A DNA stretch of 64,000 nt from a virus. Its lineage: Duplodnaviria; Heunggongvirae; Uroviricota; Caudoviricetes. This document shows, piece by piece, positions 3,645 through 50,917 of this stretch (position 1 is the stretch's first letter; every line of letters starts with the position of its first letter). The notes under the pieces are model-generated. The model worked only from the letters and a program-made list of their open reading frames with translations, was not told where the DNA came from and ran no database searches. The stretch lies in IMG/VR virus record IMGVR_UViG_3300031088_000793; one strand, 5' to 3'. The translations under genes and the position numbers were made by a program.

Positions 3645-3794
3645 TTAGGCCAGCTCGTAGATGTGCGCCTGCCTCTTGGACAGGACCCAGACCTCCTGGC
3701 CCCGGGCCATGAGCTCGGCGGCCAGGGCCCAGGCTGCGCCCGAGTCCTTGCCGAACTCGCGGATGGTCCGGTTCTTCCCGTAGATAACAACCAT
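3645..3794 (-). CDS. small hypothetical protein (49 aa)
   Basis: AAGGAG SD before MVVIYGK. Confidence 0.55.
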   Translation of the reverse strand: MVVIYGKNRTIREFGKDSGAAWALAAELMARGQEVWVLSKRQAHIYELA

Positions 3795-7126: not shown

Positions 7127-8104
7127 TTAGTCTACGACTGACTCGATCACCGGCGGCCTGTCGAGGGGGTAGCGCCTGCCCACGATGGATTCAGCGATCT
7201 TGCCGAAGGTTTTCCCGATCTCGTAGTCGGAGATGATCCGCTCCAGAGCGACCTCGTTCAGAGCGGTCCCTACGATCTTCGGAGCATCTGGGATCACACT
7301 GATGATCGGCAGCTCCTGAGCGTTGGCTACTATGTCCTTGCCGAGCAGAGCGCGCTCGGCTGTGGCTCGATTGACCACGATGCCGATCTTGTCCTTCGGA
7401 ACAGCCATGCCATGCTGGTCGAGGGGGCTCGTCACCTCCCGAATCCAGCGAGCCATCGAGAAGAGCGATGGCTTTGAGGCTTCGGTGACCATGAGGATGA
7501 AATCAGCTAGCGGATAGGCTACCCTCTCGACGGTGGGATCAAGGTAGTTCGATGCCGTGTCGATGATGATGTAGTCGTAGCTGGACTTCAGCTCCTCGAT
7601 GAGCTCCCTGTAGAACTCGGGAGGGAGCTCATCGGCTGATCGGGGCCTGCGGGGAGCCAGCATGAGATCGACCTCAAGTCCCTCGTCGTGGACCTTGGTG
7701 CCTTCGATCTCGCTCTTGCTGATGCCGTAGCGCTTGAGCCTCATCACGGTGGGCTTCCAGAATCCAGTGAAGACTCCGATCTGACCGTCCCGGACATCGA
7801 GATCCAGGACGATGACCTTCAGGGGGTCCTTTGCTGCGCCTCGGGCTACCGACACCTTCGAGGCCTTGGAGATGTAGCTCGCCAGGCTCAGAGCGACGGT
7901 GGTCTTGCCAGTGCCTCCCCGGGAAGAGGTCACGGTGACGACCTGCCCCAGTGGGTGGCGATGTTCGAAGACTGTGGGCTCTGCCCCGTCCTGTCTAGGG
8001 AGCTCCCCGGAGATCTCCAGGGTGAGCCTTGCTTCGAGATAGTTGAGTCCCGTTTCAGCCATGTAGCTGCGGATGACTCGCTTGATCTTGCGGTTGCTGG
8101 TCAT
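7127..8104 (-). CDS. basic N-terminal module fused to MinD/ParA/CpaE-like ATPase
   Basis: MTSNRKIKRVIRSYMAETGLNYLEARL; deviant Walker A SRGGTGKTT, LDLD, YDYIIIDT. Confidence 0.85.
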   Translation of the reverse strand: MTSNRKIKRVIRSYMAETGLNYLEARLTLEISGELPRQDGAEPTVFEHRHPLGQVVTVTSSRGGTGKTTVALSLASYISKASKVSVARGAAKDPLKVIVLDLDVRDGQIGVFTGFWKPTVMRLKRYGISKSEIEGTKVHDEGLEVDLMLAPRRPRSADELPPEFYRELIEELKSSYDYIIIDTASNYLDPTVERVAYPLADFILMVTEASKPSLFSMARWIREVTSPLDQHGMAVPKDKIGIVVNRATAERALLGKDIVANAQELPIISVIPDAPKIVGTALNEVALERIISDYEIGKTFGKIAESIVGRRYPLDRPPVIESVVD

Positions 8105-8263
8105 GAGTATCTACCTTCTGCGGTCAGCCCACGCTTTGACTGCACAGTAAGAGATCCATGGCAATCAGTAACCTACAGGATTCGGAAACCTTGCTCTAGA
8201 GGCGGTCGCGTGGGGACACTACCCAAAGACGGGCCGCTGTAGCCGGCCAGAGCTACACTATCA
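8105..8263 (-). ncRNA. structured leader RNA class B, copy 1 (with TGATAGTGT promoter)
   Basis: shares TGGCCG..ACAGC.GCCCGTCTT, CCCACGC/GCGTGGG helix and AGAGCAAGGTT(C)TCCGAATCCTGT with 13531-13688. Confidence 0.7.
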
Positions 8264-8337
8264 AAGCCCCGTAGGAAAATCTCACAGTTGCTGGAAGTGG
8301 CCACCCAGATCCCGCACCGCGGCTCCCCGCTCAGCAA

Positions 8338-8958
8338 TCAGGCTGCGCGGTGGATGCGCAGCCCTCGGGCTCTCAGCTCCCGGTCATAGACGGACTCAAG
8401 GAAGACAGGTGATCTGAGCTCTAGCTCTGGCATCATGCGCTCGAGCCTCCAGCGAGCACTGTCTAGATCCTCCCCATGGATCACGAGAATCCTAGGTAGC
8501 GCTGTCGAGAGCTGAGCTCCCTGATCTGCGAAGGAGCTGCGAAGCTCATCTACCATCAGTACCTCACTTCTGGCGGCTATAGATCCGGCAAAGTAATGCT
8601 GGGACTGGACAAAGGAGTAGACACCGGCTATGTCCAAAAAGCTCCTGAGCCAGGCTGCTTCGAGATAGTGGCTCGCGAGGATAAAAGCGCGGAGCTGCAC
8701 CGCTTGGAGCACACTGTAGGCAGCTGTGCTCTTGCCCGATCCGGCTAGACCGAAGATCACGAGATCGCTGCCGGCTACCAATGCCCTGGAGGCTTCAGCT
8801 ACGATGGCTTTGCTCTCAGCCGGGAGCTCCCGGGATCGAATCCTTCTAAGGCTGTCGATCTTCGTGACATGGGCCATGGCATCGGTGAAGCCTATGGGCT
8901 TTTCGCTATCGGCCATGATCCGTCGAGCGATTTTCTTCTGAGCGTGATTGGCGACCAT
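8338..8958 (-). CDS. basic N-terminal module fused to single VirB11/TadA-like P-loop domain
   Basis: MVANHAQKKIARRIM; GLAGSGKS, MVDELR, VIHG; paralog of 1657-2889. Confidence 0.75.
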   Translation of the reverse strand: MVANHAQKKIARRIMADSEKPIGFTDAMAHVTKIDSLRRIRSRELPAESKAIVAEASRALVAGSDLVIFGLAGSGKSTAAYSVLQAVQLRAFILASHYLEAAWLRSFLDIAGVYSFVQSQHYFAGSIAARSEVLMVDELRSSFADQGAQLSTALPRILVIHGEDLDSARWRLERMMPELELRSPVFLESVYDRELRARGLRIHRAA

Positions 8959-9102
8959 AGTGGATCCCTTCGGAGCTCCCGCACAGTTCAAAGAGATGGA
9001 AGAAGATGATCTGCGATGCTGAACACCTTCCCTCTCTGAGGCTTCCAGTGCGGGTGGATAGCCAGAGGCCGCCTTCAGATCGGCGGTATGCTCATACTAT
9101 CA
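8959..9102 (-). ncRNA. structured leader RNA class A, copy 2 (with TGATAGTAT promoter)
   Basis: helix CCCGCAC/GTGCGGG covaries with copy 1. Confidence 0.7.
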
Positions 9103-9103
9103 A

Positions 9104-9143
9104 AGAGGCGGAGCGAACGACCTAAGCCCTTCGCTCCGCCTCT
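9104..9143 (-). terminator. hairpin terminator after the ParM gene
   Basis: AGAGGCGGAGCGAA...TTCGCTCCGCCTCT. Confidence 0.65.
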
Positions 9144-9170
9144 AGATCCCGCCAGATGGCGAAGTTACTC

Positions 9171-10460
9171 TCAGTCCTTCTTCTTGGCTGCCTTCTTAGC
9201 CTCAGCCTTGTCCTGGGAGGCGAGGAAGAGCCCGGCCCTGTTGAGGTGGCGAGAGTAGGAGCCATCGAGGTAGAGGAGGGGGAAGGCGCTCACCGAGTTC
9301 ATCTCACTGATCTTGTCCTGGAGCCGGGAGTAGAGCACTTCCTTCATGGCTCCAGCGCCGCCTCCGTAGACGAAGCCGACCTCGGTCATGGCGCCCACAT
9401 TGCGGAGGATAGAGCCGAGCTTCTCAGCAACCTCATCCGCGAAGAACACTGACTCCTGATCCACGAACTGCTGAACCCGGCTGTGGAAGGCGCGCTTCAG
9501 TGCCGAGGGCTTCCTCTGCAGGAATTCAGCGAGCTCCTTCCGGGAGCTGAAGCCAGCCTCGATGCCCTGGTCCTCCATGGCCGTGATGGCAGAGATGAGC
9601 ACTGAGCCCCAGCCCTTGTCCAGAGTCCGGGAAGCGTCAGCGTTGAACTTTCCGTTGGTGAAGACGGGGAAGTTCACGGTGCCCTCTCCCACATCGATGC
9701 CGATGGTGTTGGTGGCAGCGAGCACATCCTTGGGAGTGATCTCAGCGAGCTCTTCCCGGCGCTCGGGAGTGGGAGCGTTCTCCAGCAGATCTGAGAGCAC
9801 CTTGTCCATGATGGAGGCGCCTCGCTCAGCGATGGCGTAGTGGGCCGAAGCGCCCTCGGCGAGGACCTCGACCTTCGAGAAGGTGATCCTCACCACCACG
9901 CTGGTCTCGAAGTTCTTCACCATGGCGATGTGGGCCTTGCCTCCGTTGATGAACTCAGCAGCGTAGCTCTCCCGGTGGCGCATGAACTCGGAGATGGGGA
10001 GAGCGAGCGCAGCGCTGGCGTCCACGAGGATCTCCTCGGTGGGGAGGCTTCCCTCCCGGGTCACATAGTCCTTCAGCGCCTTGGCGGCGAAGATGCCGAG
10101 CACCAGAGCCTTCGAGAGGGGCTGCTTAGCCTTGGAGGCCCTGCCCACAGTGTCGAACTCCTCGAAGGCGCCGTCGGCCGAGAGGGAGCGCATGCCGAAG
10201 ACCCGGCGGTAGCTGTCGGGGATCAGGGGACTGTCGAAGGACACATCGAGCTGATTGAAGAAGTCGGGATCGCTCTCAGCGAGGACCTCGGGAGCGTCCT
10301 CGTCAGCGATGGGGATCTGGTTGGGCCGGGTGAGGATAGCCACGGAGGAGGGCATGTCCACCGAATCCCGGGGCTTGCCGTCACCCCTGCTTTCGATGAG
10401 TGCCTTGACATAGCCGTTGCCGATGTCTAGCCCGCCGTTGAGCTCTACCTTGATCGCCAT
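9171..10460 (-). CDS. ParM/StbA family actin-like ATPase
   Basis: phosphate-1 GLDIGNGYVK, connect AEG, phosphate-2 GIDVGEGTVN, adenosine YGGGA. Confidence 0.85.
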   Translation of the reverse strand: MAIKVELNGGLDIGNGYVKALIESRGDGKPRDSVDMPSSVAILTRPNQIPIADEDAPEVLAESDPDFFNQLDVSFDSPLIPDSYRRVFGMRSLSADGAFEEFDTVGRASKAKQPLSKALVLGIFAAKALKDYVTREGSLPTEEILVDASAALALPISEFMRHRESYAAEFINGGKAHIAMVKNFETSVVVRITFSKVEVLAEGASAHYAIAERGASIMDKVLSDLLENAPTPERREELAEITPKDVLAATNTIGIDVGEGTVNFPVFTNGKFNADASRTLDKGWGSVLISAITAMEDQGIEAGFSSRKELAEFLQRKPSALKRAFHSRVQQFVDQESVFFADEVAEKLGSILRNVGAMTEVGFVYGGGAGAMKEVLYSRLQDKISEMNSVSAFPLLYLDGSYSRHLNRAGLFLASQDKAEAKKAAKKKD

Positions 10461-10567
10461 GAGATTTCCCTAGTTCAGTGTGCTGTTCATTGGAGCTATC
10501 CTATCGAAAGCTGCACAAAAGACGCGGATCTACACGGATTCGCTGAGAGGGTAGCGGGTGGATGAAC

Positions 10568-11065
10568 TCAGTACTTGAGCTCCAGGGCTCGCACGGCCTT
10601 CGTGGGCCTTGCCTTGCCCGTGAAGTAGCCCCGGACGATGATGGAGCCGTGCTGATTGAGGTAGAAGGTGTTGAACTCGAAGTTCGGATCGAACATCGGA
10701 CGGGGATAGTCATCCGAAGGGTCGGAGATCTCTTTGAATCCTCCAGCGATGAGCTCGTCAGCAATGAGCCGGTTGATCCGAGCCTCATCCTCCTTCGAGA
10801 ACTTGAGGTCGAATCCCCAGGCCGTGAGCGAGAGCTCCCCCTGATCCTTAGCTCGTTCCTTAGTCTGCTCGTTGAAGGTCACATAGAGCTCGTAGTCTCC
10901 CCAGTCTTCGGAGGAGATCTCCATGAAGCCATTGAGTCGGGCTCCAGCACAGCTGCTGCAGCACTCGAACTTGGGAAGGTAGCGAAGCCTGCCAGCGAGC
11001 TCTAGGGGCTCCAGCGCCTTGGCTAGAGTCTTGAAGCTGCTCTCAGTGGGCATTGCGAAGCTCAT
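10568..11065 (-). CDS. hypothetical protein with FECCxxCA motif
   Basis: paralog of 16113-16673 (YLP.FECC..CA, TFN.QTK). Confidence 0.7.
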   Translation of the reverse strand: MSFAMPTESSFKTLAKALEPLELAGRLRYLPKFECCSSCAGARLNGFMEISSEDWGDYELYVTFNEQTKERAKDQGELSLTAWGFDLKFSKEDEARINRLIADELIAGGFKEISDPSDDYPRPMFDPNFEFNTFYLNQHGSIIVRGYFTGKARPTKAVRALELKY

Positions 11066-11274
11066 GGGTTCTCCTCGGGTATCGCGGCCATGGTATCGAG
11101 AGCTGCTCCATGACCCTCAGCGGCCCTAGCCTGCGCCCTGAGACGCTTTCAGCACAGAAATGTGGGCGTGTGTCGAGCCGAGCACAGCGGGCTCAGAACA
11201 GCAGCTACTGAGCTACTGGAGTCAGTCGAAGGCTCCGTTAGCCATCCACTCGATGGTGCCGTGGCCCGGAGGGG

Positions 11275-11688
11275 TCAGGCTACGCTGTCGGGGACCAGCA
11301 CACCTGAGCGGATCAGCTTCCGGATCCTGCGCTGAAGCTTAGAGGGCAGCGGCTCCCAGTCTGTTTCGGGCACGGAGGGGAGAAGGAGCGTCAGCTGGAA
11401 CCAGCCGATCCCTCGAGTGTAGCTGATCGCAGCTGTCAGTATGGGGCTGAGCGTTTCCGGGCCTACCCGCTTGGCTGCGACGATGTCTTCGGAGAGTTCG
11501 ATGTCCTCCAGGGAGGTCATGGTCAGTCCCAGATAGTCCAGCCTGTCTCTGAGCTCATCCAGAGTCTCAGCTCGAAGGAAGCCCACTACGAGGCTGTCGG
11601 AACCTGACTTCAGCCGCTCGTACTCCTCGAAGCCCCGAAGATAGTCAACCTTGGCTGTGTCCTCGAAGAACCTGTCGAAGAACTCCAT
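11275..11688 (-). CDS. hypothetical protein
   Basis: ORF with GGGAG SD. Confidence 0.65.
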   Translation of the reverse strand: MEFFDRFFEDTAKVDYLRGFEEYERLKSGSDSLVVGFLRAETLDELRDRLDYLGLTMTSLEDIELSEDIVAAKRVGPETLSPILTAAISYTRGIGWFQLTLLLPSVPETDWEPLPSKLQRRIRKLIRSGVLVPDSVA

Positions 11689-11733
11689 GCTTTGCTCCCT
11701 CTCTGTGCCGATGGAGTTCCTATCGCTCGGGCT

Positions 11734-12291
11734 CTAGCCCATCTTCCGGGCCAGAATTTCCTCGTACTCGTCCAGGACCTCCTGGGCCACGGGGGTCACC
11801 CGGGGAAGGTTCGGCATCCGCTCGAGGAGAGCCAGAGCCGAGATCACTGAGTCCCGATCCTCTGCCTGATCGGCTACGCTCTCCCGGGCGCTGGGCTTCA
11901 GGGGTGCCGAAAGGCTGTCGATGATCTGCTCATCGAGGGACTGAAGGATGTCCGGGAGCAGCGTGGTCAGAGCGACCTCGGAAACGACCTCCAGGTGGCC
12001 CAGGCACTGACGGACCAGGGTCTCCCAGTTGCCACCCACTGCCTCGCCCTTGTAGAGGGCCTCCTTGCCGTACTTGTCCACGAAGGGGTGAAGCTCCGGA
12101 ATGAGGGGGCCGTAGCCCTCCCAGACCTCCTCGACGGGGATCGCAGTCCAGCGGCAGGCACAGCTCGCGTAGAGCGTCTGAGGCTCGCCCCAGCCGATTG
12201 CCGAGGTTTCGATGGTGTGAGCGATGGAGTCCTTCTGAGCTACGAGGGGTCCCTCGTCCTTGAAGCCCTCGAGGATGCTGTCGATGTCCAT
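11734..12291 (-). CDS. hypothetical protein
   Basis: ORF with GAAGGG SD. Confidence 0.65.
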   Translation of the reverse strand: MDIDSILEGFKDEGPLVAQKDSIAHTIETSAIGWGEPQTLYASCACRWTAIPVEEVWEGYGPLIPELHPFVDKYGKEALYKGEAVGGNWETLVRQCLGHLEVVSEVALTTLLPDILQSLDEQIIDSLSAPLKPSARESVADQAEDRDSVISALALLERMPNLPRVTPVAQEVLDEYEEILARKMG

Positions 12292-12376
12292 GCTGTGCTG
12301 CCCTTCCCTCTGGAGGTTGCTCCTGAGTACGGAGCTGTCATGGTGATCCTATCACGCGGGAGCCCTAGGGCCATTG

Positions 12377-12476
12377 AGCGGCGCGAGGATGCTGTCTAAG
12401 GCGTCTTCCTTCGAGTATCGTTCGATGATGTGTGGTAGGATAGCCACATCGTTAGACAGCCAGGAAAGGTAGACAG
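12377..12476 (+). promoter_or_regulatory. duplicated promoter cassette bracketed by inverted repeat, copy 1
   Basis: GCTGTCTAA (12391) ... TGG-TAGGAT ... TTAGACAGC (12452); homologous to 13070-13169. Confidence 0.6.
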
Positions 12477-13037
12477 ATGGTAGCAGGTATCCCGAGGGAA
12501 CGCATCGAAGGGTTGGCGAAGCGCCTCTACTACCCCGAGAGCGGTGAGCCCACAGCTGAGGATCGCGAGGAGGCTCGAGGCTTCGTCGAGAACACTTTTG
12601 CCACCATCGCTGCCAGTCCCCTCGCCTATCGAAACCTGGGTCTCTTCCTCGGCATCAAGGAGGCGGATCTCCCTCCCGCTCCAAAGCCAGCCGCCCCGAA
12701 GCCTGACGAGGAAGCTCCAGAGCTCACCGATGATGAGCTCACCGATGATGAGCTCATCGAGGAGCTTCGGCTCCAGACAGCTGACGGCACTGGCTTCGAG
12801 CTCAACTCCGATCTGTTCCGCAGCATCGTCCTCGCCGATGGTGATCTACTCAAGGACGCTGACCGCTGGGGCGCTGGAGACACGGTGGTCCGGGAGTCTG
12901 CCTACTCAGTGTTCTCCCAGGCTCTCCTCGGCAGGGACTGGCCTATCTACAGAGATGGGATCGGCGAGGATGGACTCAAGAGCTTCCTCGATGAGCTCAA
13001 GGTCGCCCACGACGAGAGAGTAGCTAGCGCTGCGTAG
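12477..13037 (+). CDS. hypothetical protein
   Basis: GAAAGG SD; contains a short 15-bp tandem repeat (ELTDD x2). Confidence 0.7.
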   Translation: MVAGIPRERIEGLAKRLYYPESGEPTAEDREEARGFVENTFATIAASPLAYRNLGLFLGIKEADLPPAPKPAAPKPDEEAPELTDDELTDDELIEELRLQTADGTGFELNSDLFRSIVLADGDLLKDADRWGAGDTVVRESAYSVFSQALLGRDWPIYRDGIGEDGLKSFLDELKVAHDERVASAA

Positions 13038-13069
13038 CTAGAGCCCTGGGGACACTCAGAGCATGGCTC

Positions 13070-13169
13070 AGCGGCGCGAGGATGCTGTCTAAGGCGCTTT
13101 CCGCCAGGAGCCGTTCGATGATGCGTGGTAAGATGACCGTACTGTTAGGCAGCCCAGAGGAGATCAAGC
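13070..13169 (+). promoter_or_regulatory. duplicated promoter cassette, copy 2
   Basis: GCTGTCTAA (13084) ... TGG-TAAGAT ... TTAGGCAGC (13145). Confidence 0.6.
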
Positions 13170-13496
13170 ATGAGTGAGACAGTTGCCTACGAGGGAAAGC
13201 TCATCCCCGTCGACTGCGGAGGAGAGTCTCTGGATATCTGGATCCAGGAACGCCTCGGCTGGAGCGACCTCCGCGGCCACAGCAACTGGCTAGAAGCCCT
13301 AGAGGAGACGATCTACGGAGGCTATTTCTACGACAGCTCCAAAGCCGTGCTCTATGAGGTCCAGCGCAGGGAGCTGCATCCCGAAGACTTCATCCACGCT
13401 ACGGCCAATGCCGACGGGAGCTTCGACTTCGTGGTGAGCTACTACAACGGTGGAGCGAGCTTCGAAGAGGTCATGGGCTCAGTCGTCGAGAACTAG
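13170..13496 (+). CDS. phage-type hypothetical protein
   Basis: GAGGAG SD; C-terminal YYNGGASFEE motif. Confidence 0.7.
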   Translation: MSETVAYEGKLIPVDCGGESLDIWIQERLGWSDLRGHSNWLEALEETIYGGYFYDSSKAVLYEVQRRELHPEDFIHATANADGSFDFVVSYYNGGASFEEVMGSVVEN

Positions 13497-13530
13497 CCTC
13501 GAAGCCTCCGGTGCACAGCTGCGCTCAGTG

Positions 13531-13688
13531 TGTTAGCATGGGACTGGCCGCCCACAGCAGCCCGTCTTAGAGCAACGCTCCCACGCAGCGAGCTCGGCAA
13601 GAGCAAGGTTCTCCGAATCCTGTGGATGCATGGACTATCTCCTATCGAGTAGCCAGGCGTGGGACGGCTGCAGAACAGGAATAGCACC
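13531..13688 (+). ncRNA. structured leader RNA class B, copy 2 (with TGTTAGCAT promoter)
   Basis: CCCACGC 13580-13586 pairs with GCGTGGG 13657-13663; homologous to 8105-8263. Confidence 0.7.
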
Positions 13689-15182
13689 ATGACCAAGAAC
13701 CGTCGCAGGAAGCAGGACGCTCGCCGCCAGAAGGCCGCAGAGTCAGTCAGCTACACTCAGGCTCTCCGAGAGACTCAGCTCCAGTCCGCCGGCCAGGAAA
13801 TCCTAGGGATCCCCACTTCGCTTCCGAGCCTCACCGGCTACACTGGAGGCTGGCAGCCCGGACAGCTCATCACAGTGGGCGCTGGAATCGGCGTAGGTAA
13901 GTCCGTCTTCGCCCTCAACAGTGTCGTTGCCGCTCTCCGAGCAAAGAGCTCAGTGCTCCACTTCTCCTTGGAGCTAAGCGCTGAGGAAGTCACCCAGCGT
14001 AGGCTATCATCCATGAGCGGCATCTCCCTGGGAGCCCTCAAGGACGGGATCGAAACTGACGCACTGGAGCAGGCTCGCGTTGAGTCTCAGTGGTTCAAGT
14101 ACGCGCTGGTCGCAGAGCCCGAACAGACCTTGGATTCCATCAGCTCCCGAGCTCGCCTCCAAGCTCGAAGCGGGTTCGGCCTCGATCTCATCGTCATCGA
14201 CAGCCTCCAGCTCATCGCAGCCACGGGTGAACCCTCGCTGCGGCATGAAGCAGTTACCCGAATCTCTCGGGGGCTCAAGCTCCTCGCCGAGGAGCTCCAG
14301 ATCCCCATCATGGTCACCGCTCAGCTCAGCCGCTCCTTCCACGAGCGCCTTGGAGGTCCCCGGATCTCCGACATCCGAGAATCTGGTTCTATCGCTATGG
14401 ACTCCGATGTGATCGTGCTCCTCAACAGAAGGTACGATCTCGGAGAGGTCGCTCAGCCCACACAGGTCATCCTCGCTAAGAATCGAGGAAGCAGCCAGGG
14501 TCAGATCATTGAGTGCCACACTGAGTTCGACTGGGCTACCCTCCGCGAGATCAAGGCCAATCCGCTGACCCTCGCCGAGGCACGGACCAGGATCAATCCC
14601 AACCCCATCCTTCAGCGCTGGAGCGCAGCCATCGAAGCTGGAAGCCACACCGTCCGAACCCTCGCAGCTAAGAAGTTCAGCGAGGGCTGGACCACCGACG
14701 GCGAAGGTGCAGATGTTTCTCACCAGGCAGATGCCTCCAATGAGCTCAGCAGGCTGAAGCGGTTCGTGGAGAACTGGCTCGACGGTACCGAAGCCACGGG
14801 GGCACTCAAGCCCTCCATGCTGGCCATGGTAGAGAGCTGGAGCCGAGGACAGGCGGCTCCCGGAGACCTGGAGCCCCAGGAGGGACTCGTCTGGCCTCTG
14901 GGGGAGGACAGCGAAGCCTGGTTCATCCAGGGCACAACGGATGAGGAGCTCGCTGTGGGAAGCCTTAGCCGCTGGCTCCACAGCTCTGACCCCGAGACAC
15001 TGGAGAGCTACGAGGATCTCGAGACTGAACTCAGCAGCGATCTCACCGCCCGGGACGACTGGTTCTGGGCGCCCCTCGTCGGAGGACCCCAGGACGGCGA
15101 CCTGGAGCTCTGCCACTACGGCAAGGACAGCGCTCGCTGGACCGGCCAGCCGCTGGTCCGAGGCGTCCACGCTCAGGTCTAA
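13689..15182 (+). CDS. basic N-terminal module fused to DnaB-like helicase ATPase domain plus unknown C-terminal domain
   Basis: MTKNRRRKQDARRQKAAESVSYTQAL; GIGVGKS, FSLEL, VIDSLQL, AQLSR, DIRESGSIAMDSD, AKNR; lacks the DnaB N-terminal domain. Confidence 0.85.
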   Translation: MTKNRRRKQDARRQKAAESVSYTQALRETQLQSAGQEILGIPTSLPSLTGYTGGWQPGQLITVGAGIGVGKSVFALNSVVAALRAKSSVLHFSLELSAEEVTQRRLSSMSGISLGALKDGIETDALEQARVESQWFKYALVAEPEQTLDSISSRARLQARSGFGLDLIVIDSLQLIAATGEPSLRHEAVTRISRGLKLLAEELQIPIMVTAQLSRSFHERLGGPRISDIRESGSIAMDSDVIVLLNRRYDLGEVAQPTQVILAKNRGSSQGQIIECHTEFDWATLREIKANPLTLAEARTRINPNPILQRWSAAIEAGSHTVRTLAAKKFSEGWTTDGEGADVSHQADASNELSRLKRFVENWLDGTEATGALKPSMLAMVESWSRGQAAPGDLEPQEGLVWPLGEDSEAWFIQGTTDEELAVGSLSRWLHSSDPETLESYEDLETELSSDLTARDDWFWAPLVGGPQDGDLELCHYGKDSARWTGQPLVRGVHAQV

Positions 15183-23893: not shown

Positions 23894-25012
23894 CTAGCCG
23901 ATGGGCCTATCGGGAGACATCTCCTTGAGCACAACGGGCTGGAGGCGGTTGGAAAACCCCGAGGAGAGCGCCTTATCAGCTATCGCGGGGAGCGCTCCAC
24001 CCTGTGCAGCTACCTCCCTGCTGCTATCCCTGAGCTCCTGGGGGAAGTAGGGAATCTCGAAGTCGATCTGACCCTGGTGAGTCAGCACCGATGCTCTACC
24101 TATGACTCCGTTGGAGCGCTTCGGCGAGTAGAGCTCCCGGACATGCTTCGGAAGATCCTCTGGAGAAAGCCTACCGAGGGCTACGGGGAGGAAGTTGAAG
24201 ATCTCGCTGTCTAGGGGTGACTCCTCGTAGGCACCTGAGATCGAGAGGTGGATGCCCGCAGGCCTGCCGAGCCGAACGATCTTCTTCAGCAGTCGAAGGG
24301 AGTCCATGGCCTGAGTTCTCGTGTCGAAGTCGGAGGACTCCATCGCATCGAGGAGTGGCTCCAGAGCGTCCACGAGCACCAATATCCGATTCATGGTGTG
24401 GCCTTCGGGGAGCGAGCTCCGGTCATTGAGGCCCAGCGCTTCGAGGTTCCGGTAGCGACCGTCGAGGAGTCCCTCGATCCGGGAGAGCATCCTGTGGACA
24501 GATTCCACAGTGGTTGCGATCTCGGTGGAGACCAGGGGATAGTCGACATACTCAGTGAGCTCTACCTTCTTCAGGTCGATGCCGTAGAAGTCCCAGTCTC
24601 GAGAGAGGCAGTGGTAGAAGAGCGCTCGCTGAATGACGCTTGCTCCACTCCCGGAGGGCTGCCGGTGGAGCCAGAGGTTGGGGTCCCGGCGAGTGTCCCA
24701 GTAGACCGACTCTCCTGTGATGTCCGTGCCGAGGAGCACCTTGGAGGGGTCACCCTGGGGATCGAAGATCCGAGCGAAGAGCTCTTCGCTTTCGAGCTTA
24801 GGCCAGGCCTTCCAGATCAGGCCCTTCTCAGTGAGCAGCTCTCGGAGCGCGCCGTCGGCTCTGCTTCCGGGAGCCACATCGAGCTTCAGACCGCCTCGGT
24901 CCTTGAGCTCGGCGTCTCCGGCCGTGAGCATGATGGAGTCCTGGCGGGGGTCATAGGAGACTCTCACATCGTCCAGGATGAGGAACTTGTTGTGCTTAGG
25001 CTGCTTCGCCAT
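23894..25012 (-). CDS. degenerate FtsK/SpoIIIE-like protein
   Basis: start MAKQPK; PSGSGAS in place of Walker A, YGIDLKKVEL, LVDAL, RLGRPAGIHL. Confidence 0.75.
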   Translation of the reverse strand: MAKQPKHNKFLILDDVRVSYDPRQDSIMLTAGDAELKDRGGLKLDVAPGSRADGALRELLTEKGLIWKAWPKLESEELFARIFDPQGDPSKVLLGTDITGESVYWDTRRDPNLWLHRQPSGSGASVIQRALFYHCLSRDWDFYGIDLKKVELTEYVDYPLVSTEIATTVESVHRMLSRIEGLLDGRYRNLEALGLNDRSSLPEGHTMNRILVLVDALEPLLDAMESSDFDTRTQAMDSLRLLKKIVRLGRPAGIHLSISGAYEESPLDSEIFNFLPVALGRLSPEDLPKHVRELYSPKRSNGVIGRASVLTHQGQIDFEIPYFPQELRDSSREVAAQGGALPAIADKALSSGFSNRLQPVVLKEMSPDRPIG

Positions 25013-25210
25013 GGGATTACTTCCTTCGGGGTCTGGTTCTTGCCAGTTCAGAGATCCTGCTGGATCGAGTGTCACTATCGCCTGAGGCGCTCAGAGCTGT
25101 GCTAAGGCTCAGCATGATCTTCCCACATCGATGCTCACAGTTGCTGCGAAGCTCACTCAGGGCGCAGCACAGCGCCGCTCTGTGGCCCTTCTGTCGCTCC
25201 GGGAAGATGG

Positions 25211-50420: not shown

Positions 50421-50457
50421 GGTTGCGCTCGCCGGGAGCGAGTGTTAGGTTGACCCC
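50421..50457 (+). promoter_or_regulatory. promoter, leaderless transcript
   Basis: TTGCGC-17-TAGGTT, ATG 7 nt later. Confidence 0.7.
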
Positions 50458-50646
50458 ATGAGCTCCTCCACCTTGAAGAAGTACCTGGGTCAGAACCCGG
50501 TCAACCTGACGGCCATCCTCGCTGCGGTGATCGTGAACCTGGCCGTCGATGACTTCCAGATCGACATCCTCTGCGCTGCGGCAATCGGCAGCTGCGGCTC
50601 TAACCTCTTCCGCAGCGCTCTCAAGATGGGCCGAGAGCCCCGCTGA
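50458..50646 (+). CDS. small membrane protein, leaderless
   Basis: two hydrophobic segments. Confidence 0.65.
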   Translation: MSSSTLKKYLGQNPVNLTAILAAVIVNLAVDDFQIDILCAAAIGSCGSNLFRSALKMGREPR

Positions 50647-50731
50647 CCCACTGCGGGCTGAGCGTCACCATCCGCTCCCTCGGAAACTCTCCGAGTTGCG
50701 CCGGAGCTCCAGGGGATGTTAGCATAGCTCC

Positions 50732-50917
50732 ATGAACCTCAACCTCGACGCTGTGAAGCGCTACATCCGTGCCAACCCCCTCGCCTTCGTCCTCATCGCC
50801 GTGGGTCTCCTCAACGGACTCATGGGCTCGACCCTGTTCTCGATCCTCTTCATCGGTGCCGGCATCTTCGTGCTGGTCCGTCAGGCCCGCAACGGAGGCG
50901 GCCGGGATCGGATCTGA
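50732..50917 (+). CDS. small membrane protein, leaderless
   Basis: TTGCGC-18-TAGCAT, ATG 7 nt later; two TM segments. Confidence 0.7.
   Translation: MNLNLDAVKRYIRANPLAFVLIAVGLLNGLMGSTLFSILFIGAGIFVLVRQARNGGGRDRI

Follow-up and report, generated by a model that had tools for sequence, protein, structure and literature searches.

A double-pseudoknot leader RNA linked to an N-terminal protein module on DnaB-like, ParA-like and other proteins of uncultured elements

We analyzed a 64,000-nucleotide stretch of the virus record IMGVR_UViG_3300031088_000793 (IMG/VR; Caudoviricetes), hereafter the window, with a focus on two ATPase genes on opposite strands and the DNA upstream of each. The window has a GC content of approximately 60%, is gene-dense with most genes on the minus strand, and comes from an uncultured phage- or plasmid-like element. 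The first gene (7127..8104, minus strand) encodes a ParA/MinD-like ATPase that matches the Pfam families CbiA (31.7 bits, cut-off 25.4), AAA_31 (30.5 bits, cut-off 27), and MipZ, as well as the ParA-like family phrog_164 (E 9e-15). The second gene (13689..15182, plus strand) encodes a DnaB-like helicase recognized by PF03796 (DnaB_C; E 1.3e-48) and phrog_19, and the protein carries a C-terminal extension of ~210 amino acids (aa). An earlier note on this DNA had proposed that the two genes share no catalytic domain, that they nevertheless share an upstream leader and an N-terminal peptide, and that leader and peptide travel together independently of the protein that follows, here called the cargo, rather than reflecting a simple duplication of whole genes.

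Each gene is preceded by ~150 nucleotides (nt) of leader lying between an extended -10-like box and the ATG. For the DnaB-like gene, a motif scan located the box TGTTAGCAT at 13531..13539 (plus strand) and the leader, a putative 5' untranslated region (UTR), at 13540..13688, with the transcription start expected ~7 nt downstream of the box, at the foot of the first hairpin described below; a simple sigma-70 scan gave no match at this box. The corresponding box of the ParA/MinD-like gene, TGATAGTGT, was found by the same kind of scan at 8255..8263, and its leader occupies 8105..8254 (both on the minus strand). The two leaders align end to end with few indels at a global identity of 0.70, compared to 0.52 +/- 0.027 (maximum 0.61) for 200 shuffles; every shuffle was exceeded in this comparison, the kind of test by which the earlier note had proposed to judge its claim. 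A covariance model of this leader type, class B (model R1), detected exactly two copies in the window, scoring 150.3 bits on the DnaB leader and 125.8 bits on the ParA leader. The two leaders represent the same structured 5'-UTR RNA, which is ~145 nt long and begins at, or immediately beside, the putative transcription start.

The leader fold was modeled from a scan for runs of covarying columns followed by formal counting of pairs. It is a double pseudoknot in which the strands follow the order PK1a - PK2a - P3 - PK1b - P4 - PK2b. At the extreme 5' end, P1 is a hairpin of 5 base pairs (bp) with a loop of seven bases, six of which form PK1 with the hexamer right after P3. In the DnaB leader, P1 spans 13546..13562 (stem 13546-13550 with 13558-13562), the loop strand PK1a (CCACAG) lies at 13552-13557 and its partner PK1b (CUGUGG) at 13620..13625, and five of the six PK1 pairs change on both sides. 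P2 is a hairpin of 3-6 bp whose stem covaries strongly (three to four pairs change on both sides) and whose 7-base loop pairs with a distal strand to form PK2. This hairpin is found at 13576..13590 of the DnaB leader (stem 13576-13579 with 13587-13590), with the loop strand PK2a (CCCACGC) at 13580-13586; the distal strand PK2b (GCGUGGG, 13657..13663) is 100% paired, includes three covarying pairs, and ends 25 nt before the AUG. Enclosed between these long-range helices is P3 (GGUUC-UCC-GAAUC, 13607..13619), an almost invariant hairpin that is 100% paired and holds a G.U pair in 24 of 24 sequences, kept even where the neighboring U-A has become C-G in contig L296. Its loop of 3-5 nt is variable (UCC, ACC, CCU, CCC, UUC, UCCG, UCAG, AUC), with a covarying closing pair. 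P4, a variable hairpin identified by covariation, spans 13631..13655. Unpaired nucleotides are nearly invariant in the linker GUCUU and at AAGAGCAAGG.

The same elements were placed by covariation on the minus strand in the ParA leader: P1 at 8232..8248 (stem 8248-8244 with 8236-8232, PK1a loop strand CUACAG at 8242-8237), P2 at 8205..8217 (stem GUC/GAC, PK2a loop CCCACGC at 8214-8208), and P3 with PK1b at 8173..8190, where P3 covers 8190-8179 and PK1b (CUGUAG, 8178-8173) follows directly. PK2b (GCGUGGG) lies at 8128..8134 and ends 23 nt before the AUG. The sequence blocks that the earlier note had listed as common to both genes were all present at their expected places, and the fold accounts for them: TGGCCG..ACAGC.GCCCGTCTT corresponds to P1 and the linker after it, CCCACGC...GCGTGGG to the long-range pairing PK2, and AGAGCAAGGTT(C)TCCGAATCCTGT to P3 and the 3' strand of PK1. 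The GCAGAA block also occurs in both leaders as part of the 3' tail, although it is only partly kept in relatives. The reading of the P3 block as T-loop-like did not survive: P3 is an ordinary hairpin of 4-5 bp with a short variable loop rather than the 7-nt T-loop consensus, and ARAGORN detected no tRNA-like gene in the window.

Among 19 sequences, 96.6% of the cells in the model were paired and 11 pairs changed on both sides; among 24 distinct sequences, including those from contigs L295-L297, the values were 96.1% and 18 of 30 pairs. Because the sequences are related, these tallies of covarying cells are higher than the number of independent events behind them, and safer measures of pairing support are a control with slid partners and the number of distinct compensated versions. 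In the slid control on the 24 sequences, pairing fell to 30-47% and no more than four pairs changed on both sides. PK1 occurs as CCACAG/CUGUGG, CUACAG/CUGUAG, CCAUAG/CUAUGG, and CAGCGC/GCGCUG, and PK2 in at least seven compensated versions (CCCACGC/GCGUGGG, UCCACGC/GCGUGGA, CCCACAC/GUGUGGG, CCCGCAC/GUGCGGG, CCCGCGU/ACGCGGG, CCUGCGC/GCGCAGG, and CCGUGC/GCACGG). Minimum-free-energy folding of the single leaders was no better than that of shuffles (z +1.0 and -0.5), and RNAalifold on two sequences recovered neither pseudoknot. Further pairings were tried. Two were discarded: a longer P3 (GCA/UGU) is incompatible with PK1 and is disrupted in contig L025, and an outward extension of the PK2 helix (GCU/GGC, AGC/GCU) has less support than the local P2 stem. 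The 3' tail CUGCAG is a candidate alternative partner of PK1b that pairs in 93.9% of cells, many of them as G.U, and is not kept in the aligned L296 leaders. Pairing of PK2b with the CCAUG start region is broken in the L296 leaders and was therefore judged to be probably due to chance.

Two minor features were noted within the window leaders. The DnaB leader contains an upstream open reading frame (ORF) of 20 codons (13631-13691) that ends in ATGA overlapping the main start; it was rejected as a conserved feature, since its frame and presence vary in relatives, the upstream AUG of L025 is in frame with the gene, and most ParA-type leaders lack it. The 3' tail of the window ParA-type leader (8105-8127, CAGAAGGUAGAUA) is closer to the DnaB-type tails of contigs L026 (9740-9768) and L297 than to other ParA-type tails, which hints at an exchange between leader copies or at a retained ancestral tail.

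The homology of the two genes continues from the leaders into the first codons. In a profile comparison (hhalign) of seven DnaB-type with seven ParA-type orthologs, only residues 1-78 and 1-87 could be aligned (E 3.7e-5); this span comprises an N-terminal module, a linker, and Walker A, and the real similarity lies at residues 1-33 and again at Walker A. The two proteins are P-loop NTPases of different families (CbiA/AAA_31/ParA versus DnaB_C), which qualifies the claim of no shared catalytic domain. The module is coded at 13689..13787 (plus strand) in the DnaB-like gene and at 8006..8104 (minus strand) in the ParA-like gene. Identity between these two copies is weak, ~26% over 35 residues; the shared peptide is real all the same, with both copies scored by a module hidden Markov model (HMM) at E 1e-14 to 1e-17 (E 9e-18 for the DnaB-type coding region). 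What the two genes have in common is the promoter-proximal leader and the first ~33 codons, with homology fading across a disordered linker; the ATPase cores that follow are different. This limit excludes a whole-gene duplication, as the earlier note had argued, and together with the predicted helical hairpin and linker it defines the shared unit as a promoter, a leader, and a two-helix module joined by a linker to the cargo. In the DnaB-like protein, the module occupies the place of the DnaB N-terminal domain PF00772, which Pfam did not detect in the window protein or its closest relatives (P0001-P0006) and which is present in more distant relatives. In the ParA-like protein, residues ~60-68 read SSRGGTGKT, compared to the consensus SSKGGxGKT in the seven orthologs, and the signature lysine of the deviant Walker A motif is therefore an arginine in the window copy.

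The module is a basic segment of ~33 residues with the consensus M-x-x-N-x-x-x-K-x-x-A-R ... S-Y-x-x-A-L and a flexible linker to the cargo. In an AlphaFold2 model of the ParA-type protein, residues 3-18 and 22-32 form two helices separated by a turn (pLDDT 72-90), followed by a disordered linker at residues 33-53 and then by the ATPase core; accordingly, the module is predicted to fold on its own as a helical hairpin, attached through a disordered linker. The first helix is basic and displays the conserved N4, K8, and R12 on one face, which by analogy resembles an arginine-rich motif. The extreme N-terminus (MT.N..K) shows a possible likeness to the N-terminal motifs by which ClpX recognizes proteins such as lambda O. 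The isolated module had no match in Pfam, and an Atlas feature search with it was likewise empty.

Within the window, the module HMM identified exactly eight genes (starts at 2889, 8104, 8958, 13689, 57201, 58330, 59753, and 60892), with the match beginning at residue 1 in every case. A search of 1.84 billion representative proteins returned 193 clusters at E 1e-3 or better, in almost all of which the module is N-terminal. Among 88 matches of at least 150 aa, the cargo includes DnaB_C (8), ParA-type (4), and FtsK/SpoIIIE (4) domains, as well as AAA+, DUF1963, primase zinc ribbon, and STAND-type NTPase domains, while most have no Pfam family; the ten matches that were looked up are all metagenomic and have no informative name. 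Many other matches are only 36-100 aa long (P0130, P0135, P0139, P0140, and others) and may be fragments at contig ends or free-standing module proteins able to act in trans. The window also encodes an FtsK/SpoIIIE-family protein that lacks the module (23894-25075, minus strand; E 1.4e-12), unlike the FtsK-like proteins of L296 and three other clusters.

All eight module genes of the window are preceded by the -10-like box TGNTARNNT and have putative UTRs of 129-173 nt, compared to 0-48 nt for seven other window genes behind the same box; two further box matches, upstream of the starts at 3790 and 31071, give putative UTRs of 144 and 185 nt. The next-best full-length matches of the class B model are leaders of a second type, class A, which end exactly at their ATG and have the same P1/PK1, P2/PK2, and P3 layout, and the class C leaders all carry the P2-loop/PK2 pair CCUGCGC/GCGCAGG. 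To quantify the association between leader and module, we defined a strict P2-loop/PK2 signature as a loop of 7-8 nt closed by a stem of 3 bp or more, together with a perfect 7-nt complement located 40-120 nt downstream and ending 15-35 nt before the start. It was found upstream of 25 of 27 module genes versus 22 of 529 other ORF starts (4.2%) and 152 of 5000 random positions (3.0%). When the threshold is lowered to 6 nt, the signature is present at 33 of 33 module genes, against a background at that threshold of 23-27%, and the distance from the end of PK2b to the AUG is 19-29 nt in all 33.

Five contigs carrying members of the module clusters (L295, L296, L297, L298, and L299) were fetched and inspected for leaders. 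L295 repeats the window arrangement. In L296, a phage-like contig of ~70% GC that encodes WhiB, two matches of the leader model (37.8 and 20.3 bits) head a 350-aa unknown protein and an FtsK/SpoIIIE-like protein, both bearing the module; one start, publicly called at 12905, is placed by the leader model and the module at 12917 (MTTNRARK...). On L297, class B leaders precede two genes, one for a 539-aa protein without a Pfam family and the other for a 572-aa DnaB. In L298, a leader of 35% GC with the same layout and different sequences precedes a module-bearing ParA-like gene, and in L299 the leader of a gene with DUF1963 cargo shows P1, P2/PK2, and P3, with no PK1 found in it. The leader RNA is part of a wider family that comprises classes A, B, and C of the window and variants in elements of 35-71% GC. 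Since the same leader class and module precede DnaB, ParA, FtsK/SpoIIIE-like, DUF1963, and unknown proteins, these observations support the proposal that leader and peptide travel together independently of the cargo.

Metagenomic relatives of the DnaB-like protein range from 98% to 36% identity, and their contigs are syntenic with the window (actin-like ALP, AAA protein, ParA-like, two small genes, DnaB-like). Scanning metagenome contigs for motifs and then applying nhmmer yielded 25 true class B leaders, 19 of them distinct. Each heads a DnaB-type or ParA-type gene, save for a truncated gene on contig L050 that was assigned by its N-terminus only and whose full-length counterpart is the 539-aa protein of L297. 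In 20 of 20 ortholog pairs, conservation is higher in the leader than in the coding sequence (for example, 0.75 for the leader, 0.61 for the coding nucleotides, and 0.38 for the protein), which points to selection on the RNA. The arrangement of leader and module is kept for both genes in relatives whose proteins are only 36-50% identical, which indicates that the fusion is old. In a near-identical relative, L048 (5038-5189, minus strand), the DnaB-like gene has ATT in place of its ATG start codon, while its leader and ORF are otherwise intact; a sequencing error may be the reason, or the start may be non-canonical. Searches among phages and plasmids by megablast revealed no cultured relative, tblastn against phages matched only the ATPase cores and never the module, and an exact-motif scan of viral contigs found no match. 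A looser motif scan of viral contigs gave 25 stretches, all due to chance with no true leader copy, and the same scan of species genomes gave only chance matches among the matches listed.

Rfam 15 has no match anywhere in the window at the gathering score, and in E-value mode (to E 10) the two class B leaders and the neighboring class A leader (8040-9140) gave only chance matches (E 0.8-5). A literature search found no described equivalent of the leader and module. Pseudoknotted regulatory leaders as such are a known kind; neither this structured RNA, nor the module, nor their coupling across unrelated cargo matches a known family or the searchable literature.

We propose that leader and module form one functional cassette in which the peptide would recognize its own leader RNA, resulting in autogenous translational control and possibly tethering. 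We assign this tentative reading a probability of about 0.4. Recognition of the RNA by the peptide is the most economical explanation because the module alone is common to the regulated genes, the fold ends by the ribosome-binding site, and the first helix is basic. This helix would bind the folded leader of its own mRNA, with the invariant P3 hairpin as the likeliest contact, and, since the fold adjoins the ribosome-binding region on its upstream side, a bound module would limit further initiation. Binding could also tether the new protein to its own nascent transcript, and thus to its own DNA, and the outcome would be a tight, self-limiting, and possibly cis-preferential supply of NTPases for replication and segregation. 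A stronger version, which we consider unlikely, is a portable self-addressing cassette: the emerging hairpin would grip the leader of the nascent mRNA, cap synthesis, and hold helicases, ParA, FtsK-like, and other DNA enzymes at their own genome in a cis-preferential manner, and recombination in the linker could move such a cassette onto any cargo.

Partial parallels exist for the proposed control. The leaders of the S4 and S15 ribosomal protein mRNAs are pseudoknotted and bound by their own gene products (PMC3616713). Autogenous operators of this type (the double pseudoknot of the E. coli S4/alpha operon, S15, T4 gene 32, RegA) resemble the present leaders in being structured and adjoining the ribosome-binding site of their own gene. 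They differ in being tied to a single protein and in usually covering the Shine-Dalgarno (SD) sequence or the start, whereas here SD and AUG lie outside the conserved fold and the putative ligand, whose binding is a prediction, is a small portable N-terminal tag on unrelated proteins. In phage lambda, the N-terminal arginine-rich helix of N binds the boxB RNA hairpin. The likeness to the module, which is one of description and not of sequence, consists in a basic N-terminal alpha-helix with a flexible remainder, a proposed small conserved hairpin target in the 5' part of the transcript, and tethering to nascent RNA; in contrast, N acts on transcription elongation and binds nut sites in trans, while the module is a two-helix segment fused to NTPases and linked to a 145-nt double pseudoknot. 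Type Ia ParA proteins (P1 ParA, F SopA) have an N-terminal winged helix-turn-helix of ~100 aa that binds promoter DNA, autoregulates, and is confined to ParA. They share with the ParA-like protein, as proposed here, an extra N-terminal nucleic-acid-binding part on a ParA ATPase for autoregulation, and they differ in that the module has ~33 aa, is common to helicases, FtsK-like, and other proteins, and is linked to an RNA structure.

Several points weigh against recognition of the leader by the peptide. Binding and its effects on expression are predicted from sequence, and the transcription starts were placed by the -10-like motif. The modules are ~26% identical while the RNAs are 70% identical, so that recognition must depend on few shared residues, and a basic helix with N...K...AR could equally bind DNA. 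No conserved pairing that sequesters SD or AUG was found, and the candidate alternative pairings are lost in L296. In addition, most of the sequences come from one clade of elements, which inflates the apparent number of covariation events.

The most serious alternative, possible although we doubt it, is that the leader is a cis-regulatory RNA answering a small molecule as a riboswitch, a separate RNA-binding regulator encoded by the element or the host, or a small RNA, and that the module does an unrelated job such as binding DNA or a partner or serving as a degradation tag, the two being co-inherited as one promoter-proximal expression cassette. Like riboswitch aptamers, the leader is a conserved, structured, and compact pseudoknotted RNA in a 5' UTR, a compact double pseudoknot whose many near-invariant unpaired and junction nucleotides (GUCUU linker, AAGAGCAAGG) are aptamer-like, and near-identical leaders on several genes of one element fit co-regulation by a single signal. 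The possible ClpX-type motif at the N-terminus would also suit a separate job of the module. On the other hand, riboswitch regulons normally share a pathway, whereas the genes behind this leader have no common metabolic theme, their cargo being functionally mixed with the module alone in common. Neither a conserved terminator nor an SD-sequestering platform was found in the leaders, the candidate alternative pairings are lost in L296, no known family matched even at E 10, and this explanation does not tell why the module never lacks the leader signature in the loci examined. The same exclusive link speaks against a ligand-free role, which is distinctly unlikely, with the leader as a 5'-terminal fold locked by pseudoknots against 5'-end-dependent decay (RNase J/E) and perhaps as a standby or enhancer platform for steady low expression. 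The start of P1 at the putative transcription start, the end of the structure just upstream of the ribosome-binding site, and the unpaired SD and AUG would all suit such a role; yet simple stabilizers need no ~150 nt with near-invariant loops and linkers, and other genes of the element do with the short putative UTRs of 0-48 nt.

The strand order of the fold recalls another known RNA. HDV-like ribozymes, named after hepatitis delta virus, have the topology of a nested double pseudoknot (PMC4836649), and they share with the leader the order P1a-P2a-P3-P1b-P4-P2b, two long-range helices that interlock about an internal hairpin, and a P4 that varies. A self-cleaving ribozyme that trims read-through transcripts to a defined 5' end would also fit the way in which P3 leads straight into the first helix's 3' strand and the conserved G.U pair in P3. 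We nevertheless find this highly improbable. Only one nucleotide (R) separates P4 from PK2b, with no counterpart of the conserved J4/2 cytosine; the closest column holding C pairs with G, and in L050 and L297 it has U, which keeps a G-U pair. The first PK1 pair is C-G in 23 of 24 leaders, compared to the G.U at the cleavage site of HDV-like ribozymes, and ~20 nt including the 3' strand of P2, an extra stem, intervene between PK2a and P3, while P2 and P3 are contiguous in HDV-like ribozymes. Moreover, the leader has two extra closing stems, both 5' strands lie within closed hairpin loops, the putative transcription start is only 6-8 nt before the would-be cleavage site, and the HDV-family Rfam models did not match the leaders at E 10. 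Equally remote is the idea that the conserved block functions at the DNA level, whether it be an operator or iteron for the module or a single-strand origin, with RNA structure incidental. In its favor, P3 reads as an imperfect inverted repeat, the cargo consists of proteins acting on DNA, and autoregulation by type Ia ParA through a DNA-binding N-terminal domain offers a precedent. Action as duplex DNA is made unlikely by the invariable sense orientation of the leader and its location after the -10 box and a fixed distance before the ATG, by the P3 G.U pair conserved in 24 of 24 sequences, which would be a mismatch in duplex DNA (C.A on the other strand), and by the covariation of the long-range loop-strand helices.

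The leader constitutes a new well-supported class of structured RNA from uncultured elements, absent from Rfam 15, with a double pseudoknot and many compensatory changes, and it is tied to a 33-residue protein module on at least 193 protein clusters rather than to a gene family or pathway. The recurrence of leader RNA and tag on many proteins suggests a portable control cassette of an undescribed kind, and their strict co-inheritance needs explaining even without binding. If the RNA and the peptide do recognize each other, they would form a modular and transferable device for the post-transcriptional control or tethering of replication and partition proteins. This would bear on the means by which mobile elements control the amounts of these proteins and ensure that they act in cis, and it might provide synthetic biology with a compact orthogonal RNA-peptide pair.

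Two other upstream features of the window were observed. A second duplicated cassette, unrelated to the leader RNA, occurs at 12377-12461 and 13070-13154 (79% identical over 85 nt) and fronts small plus-strand genes at 12477 and 13170, with putative UTRs of ~29 nt. At 50443-50458 and 50717-50732, extended -10-like boxes end right at the start codons of two small plus-strand genes, which suggests leaderless mRNAs, a type of transcript common in Actinobacteria.

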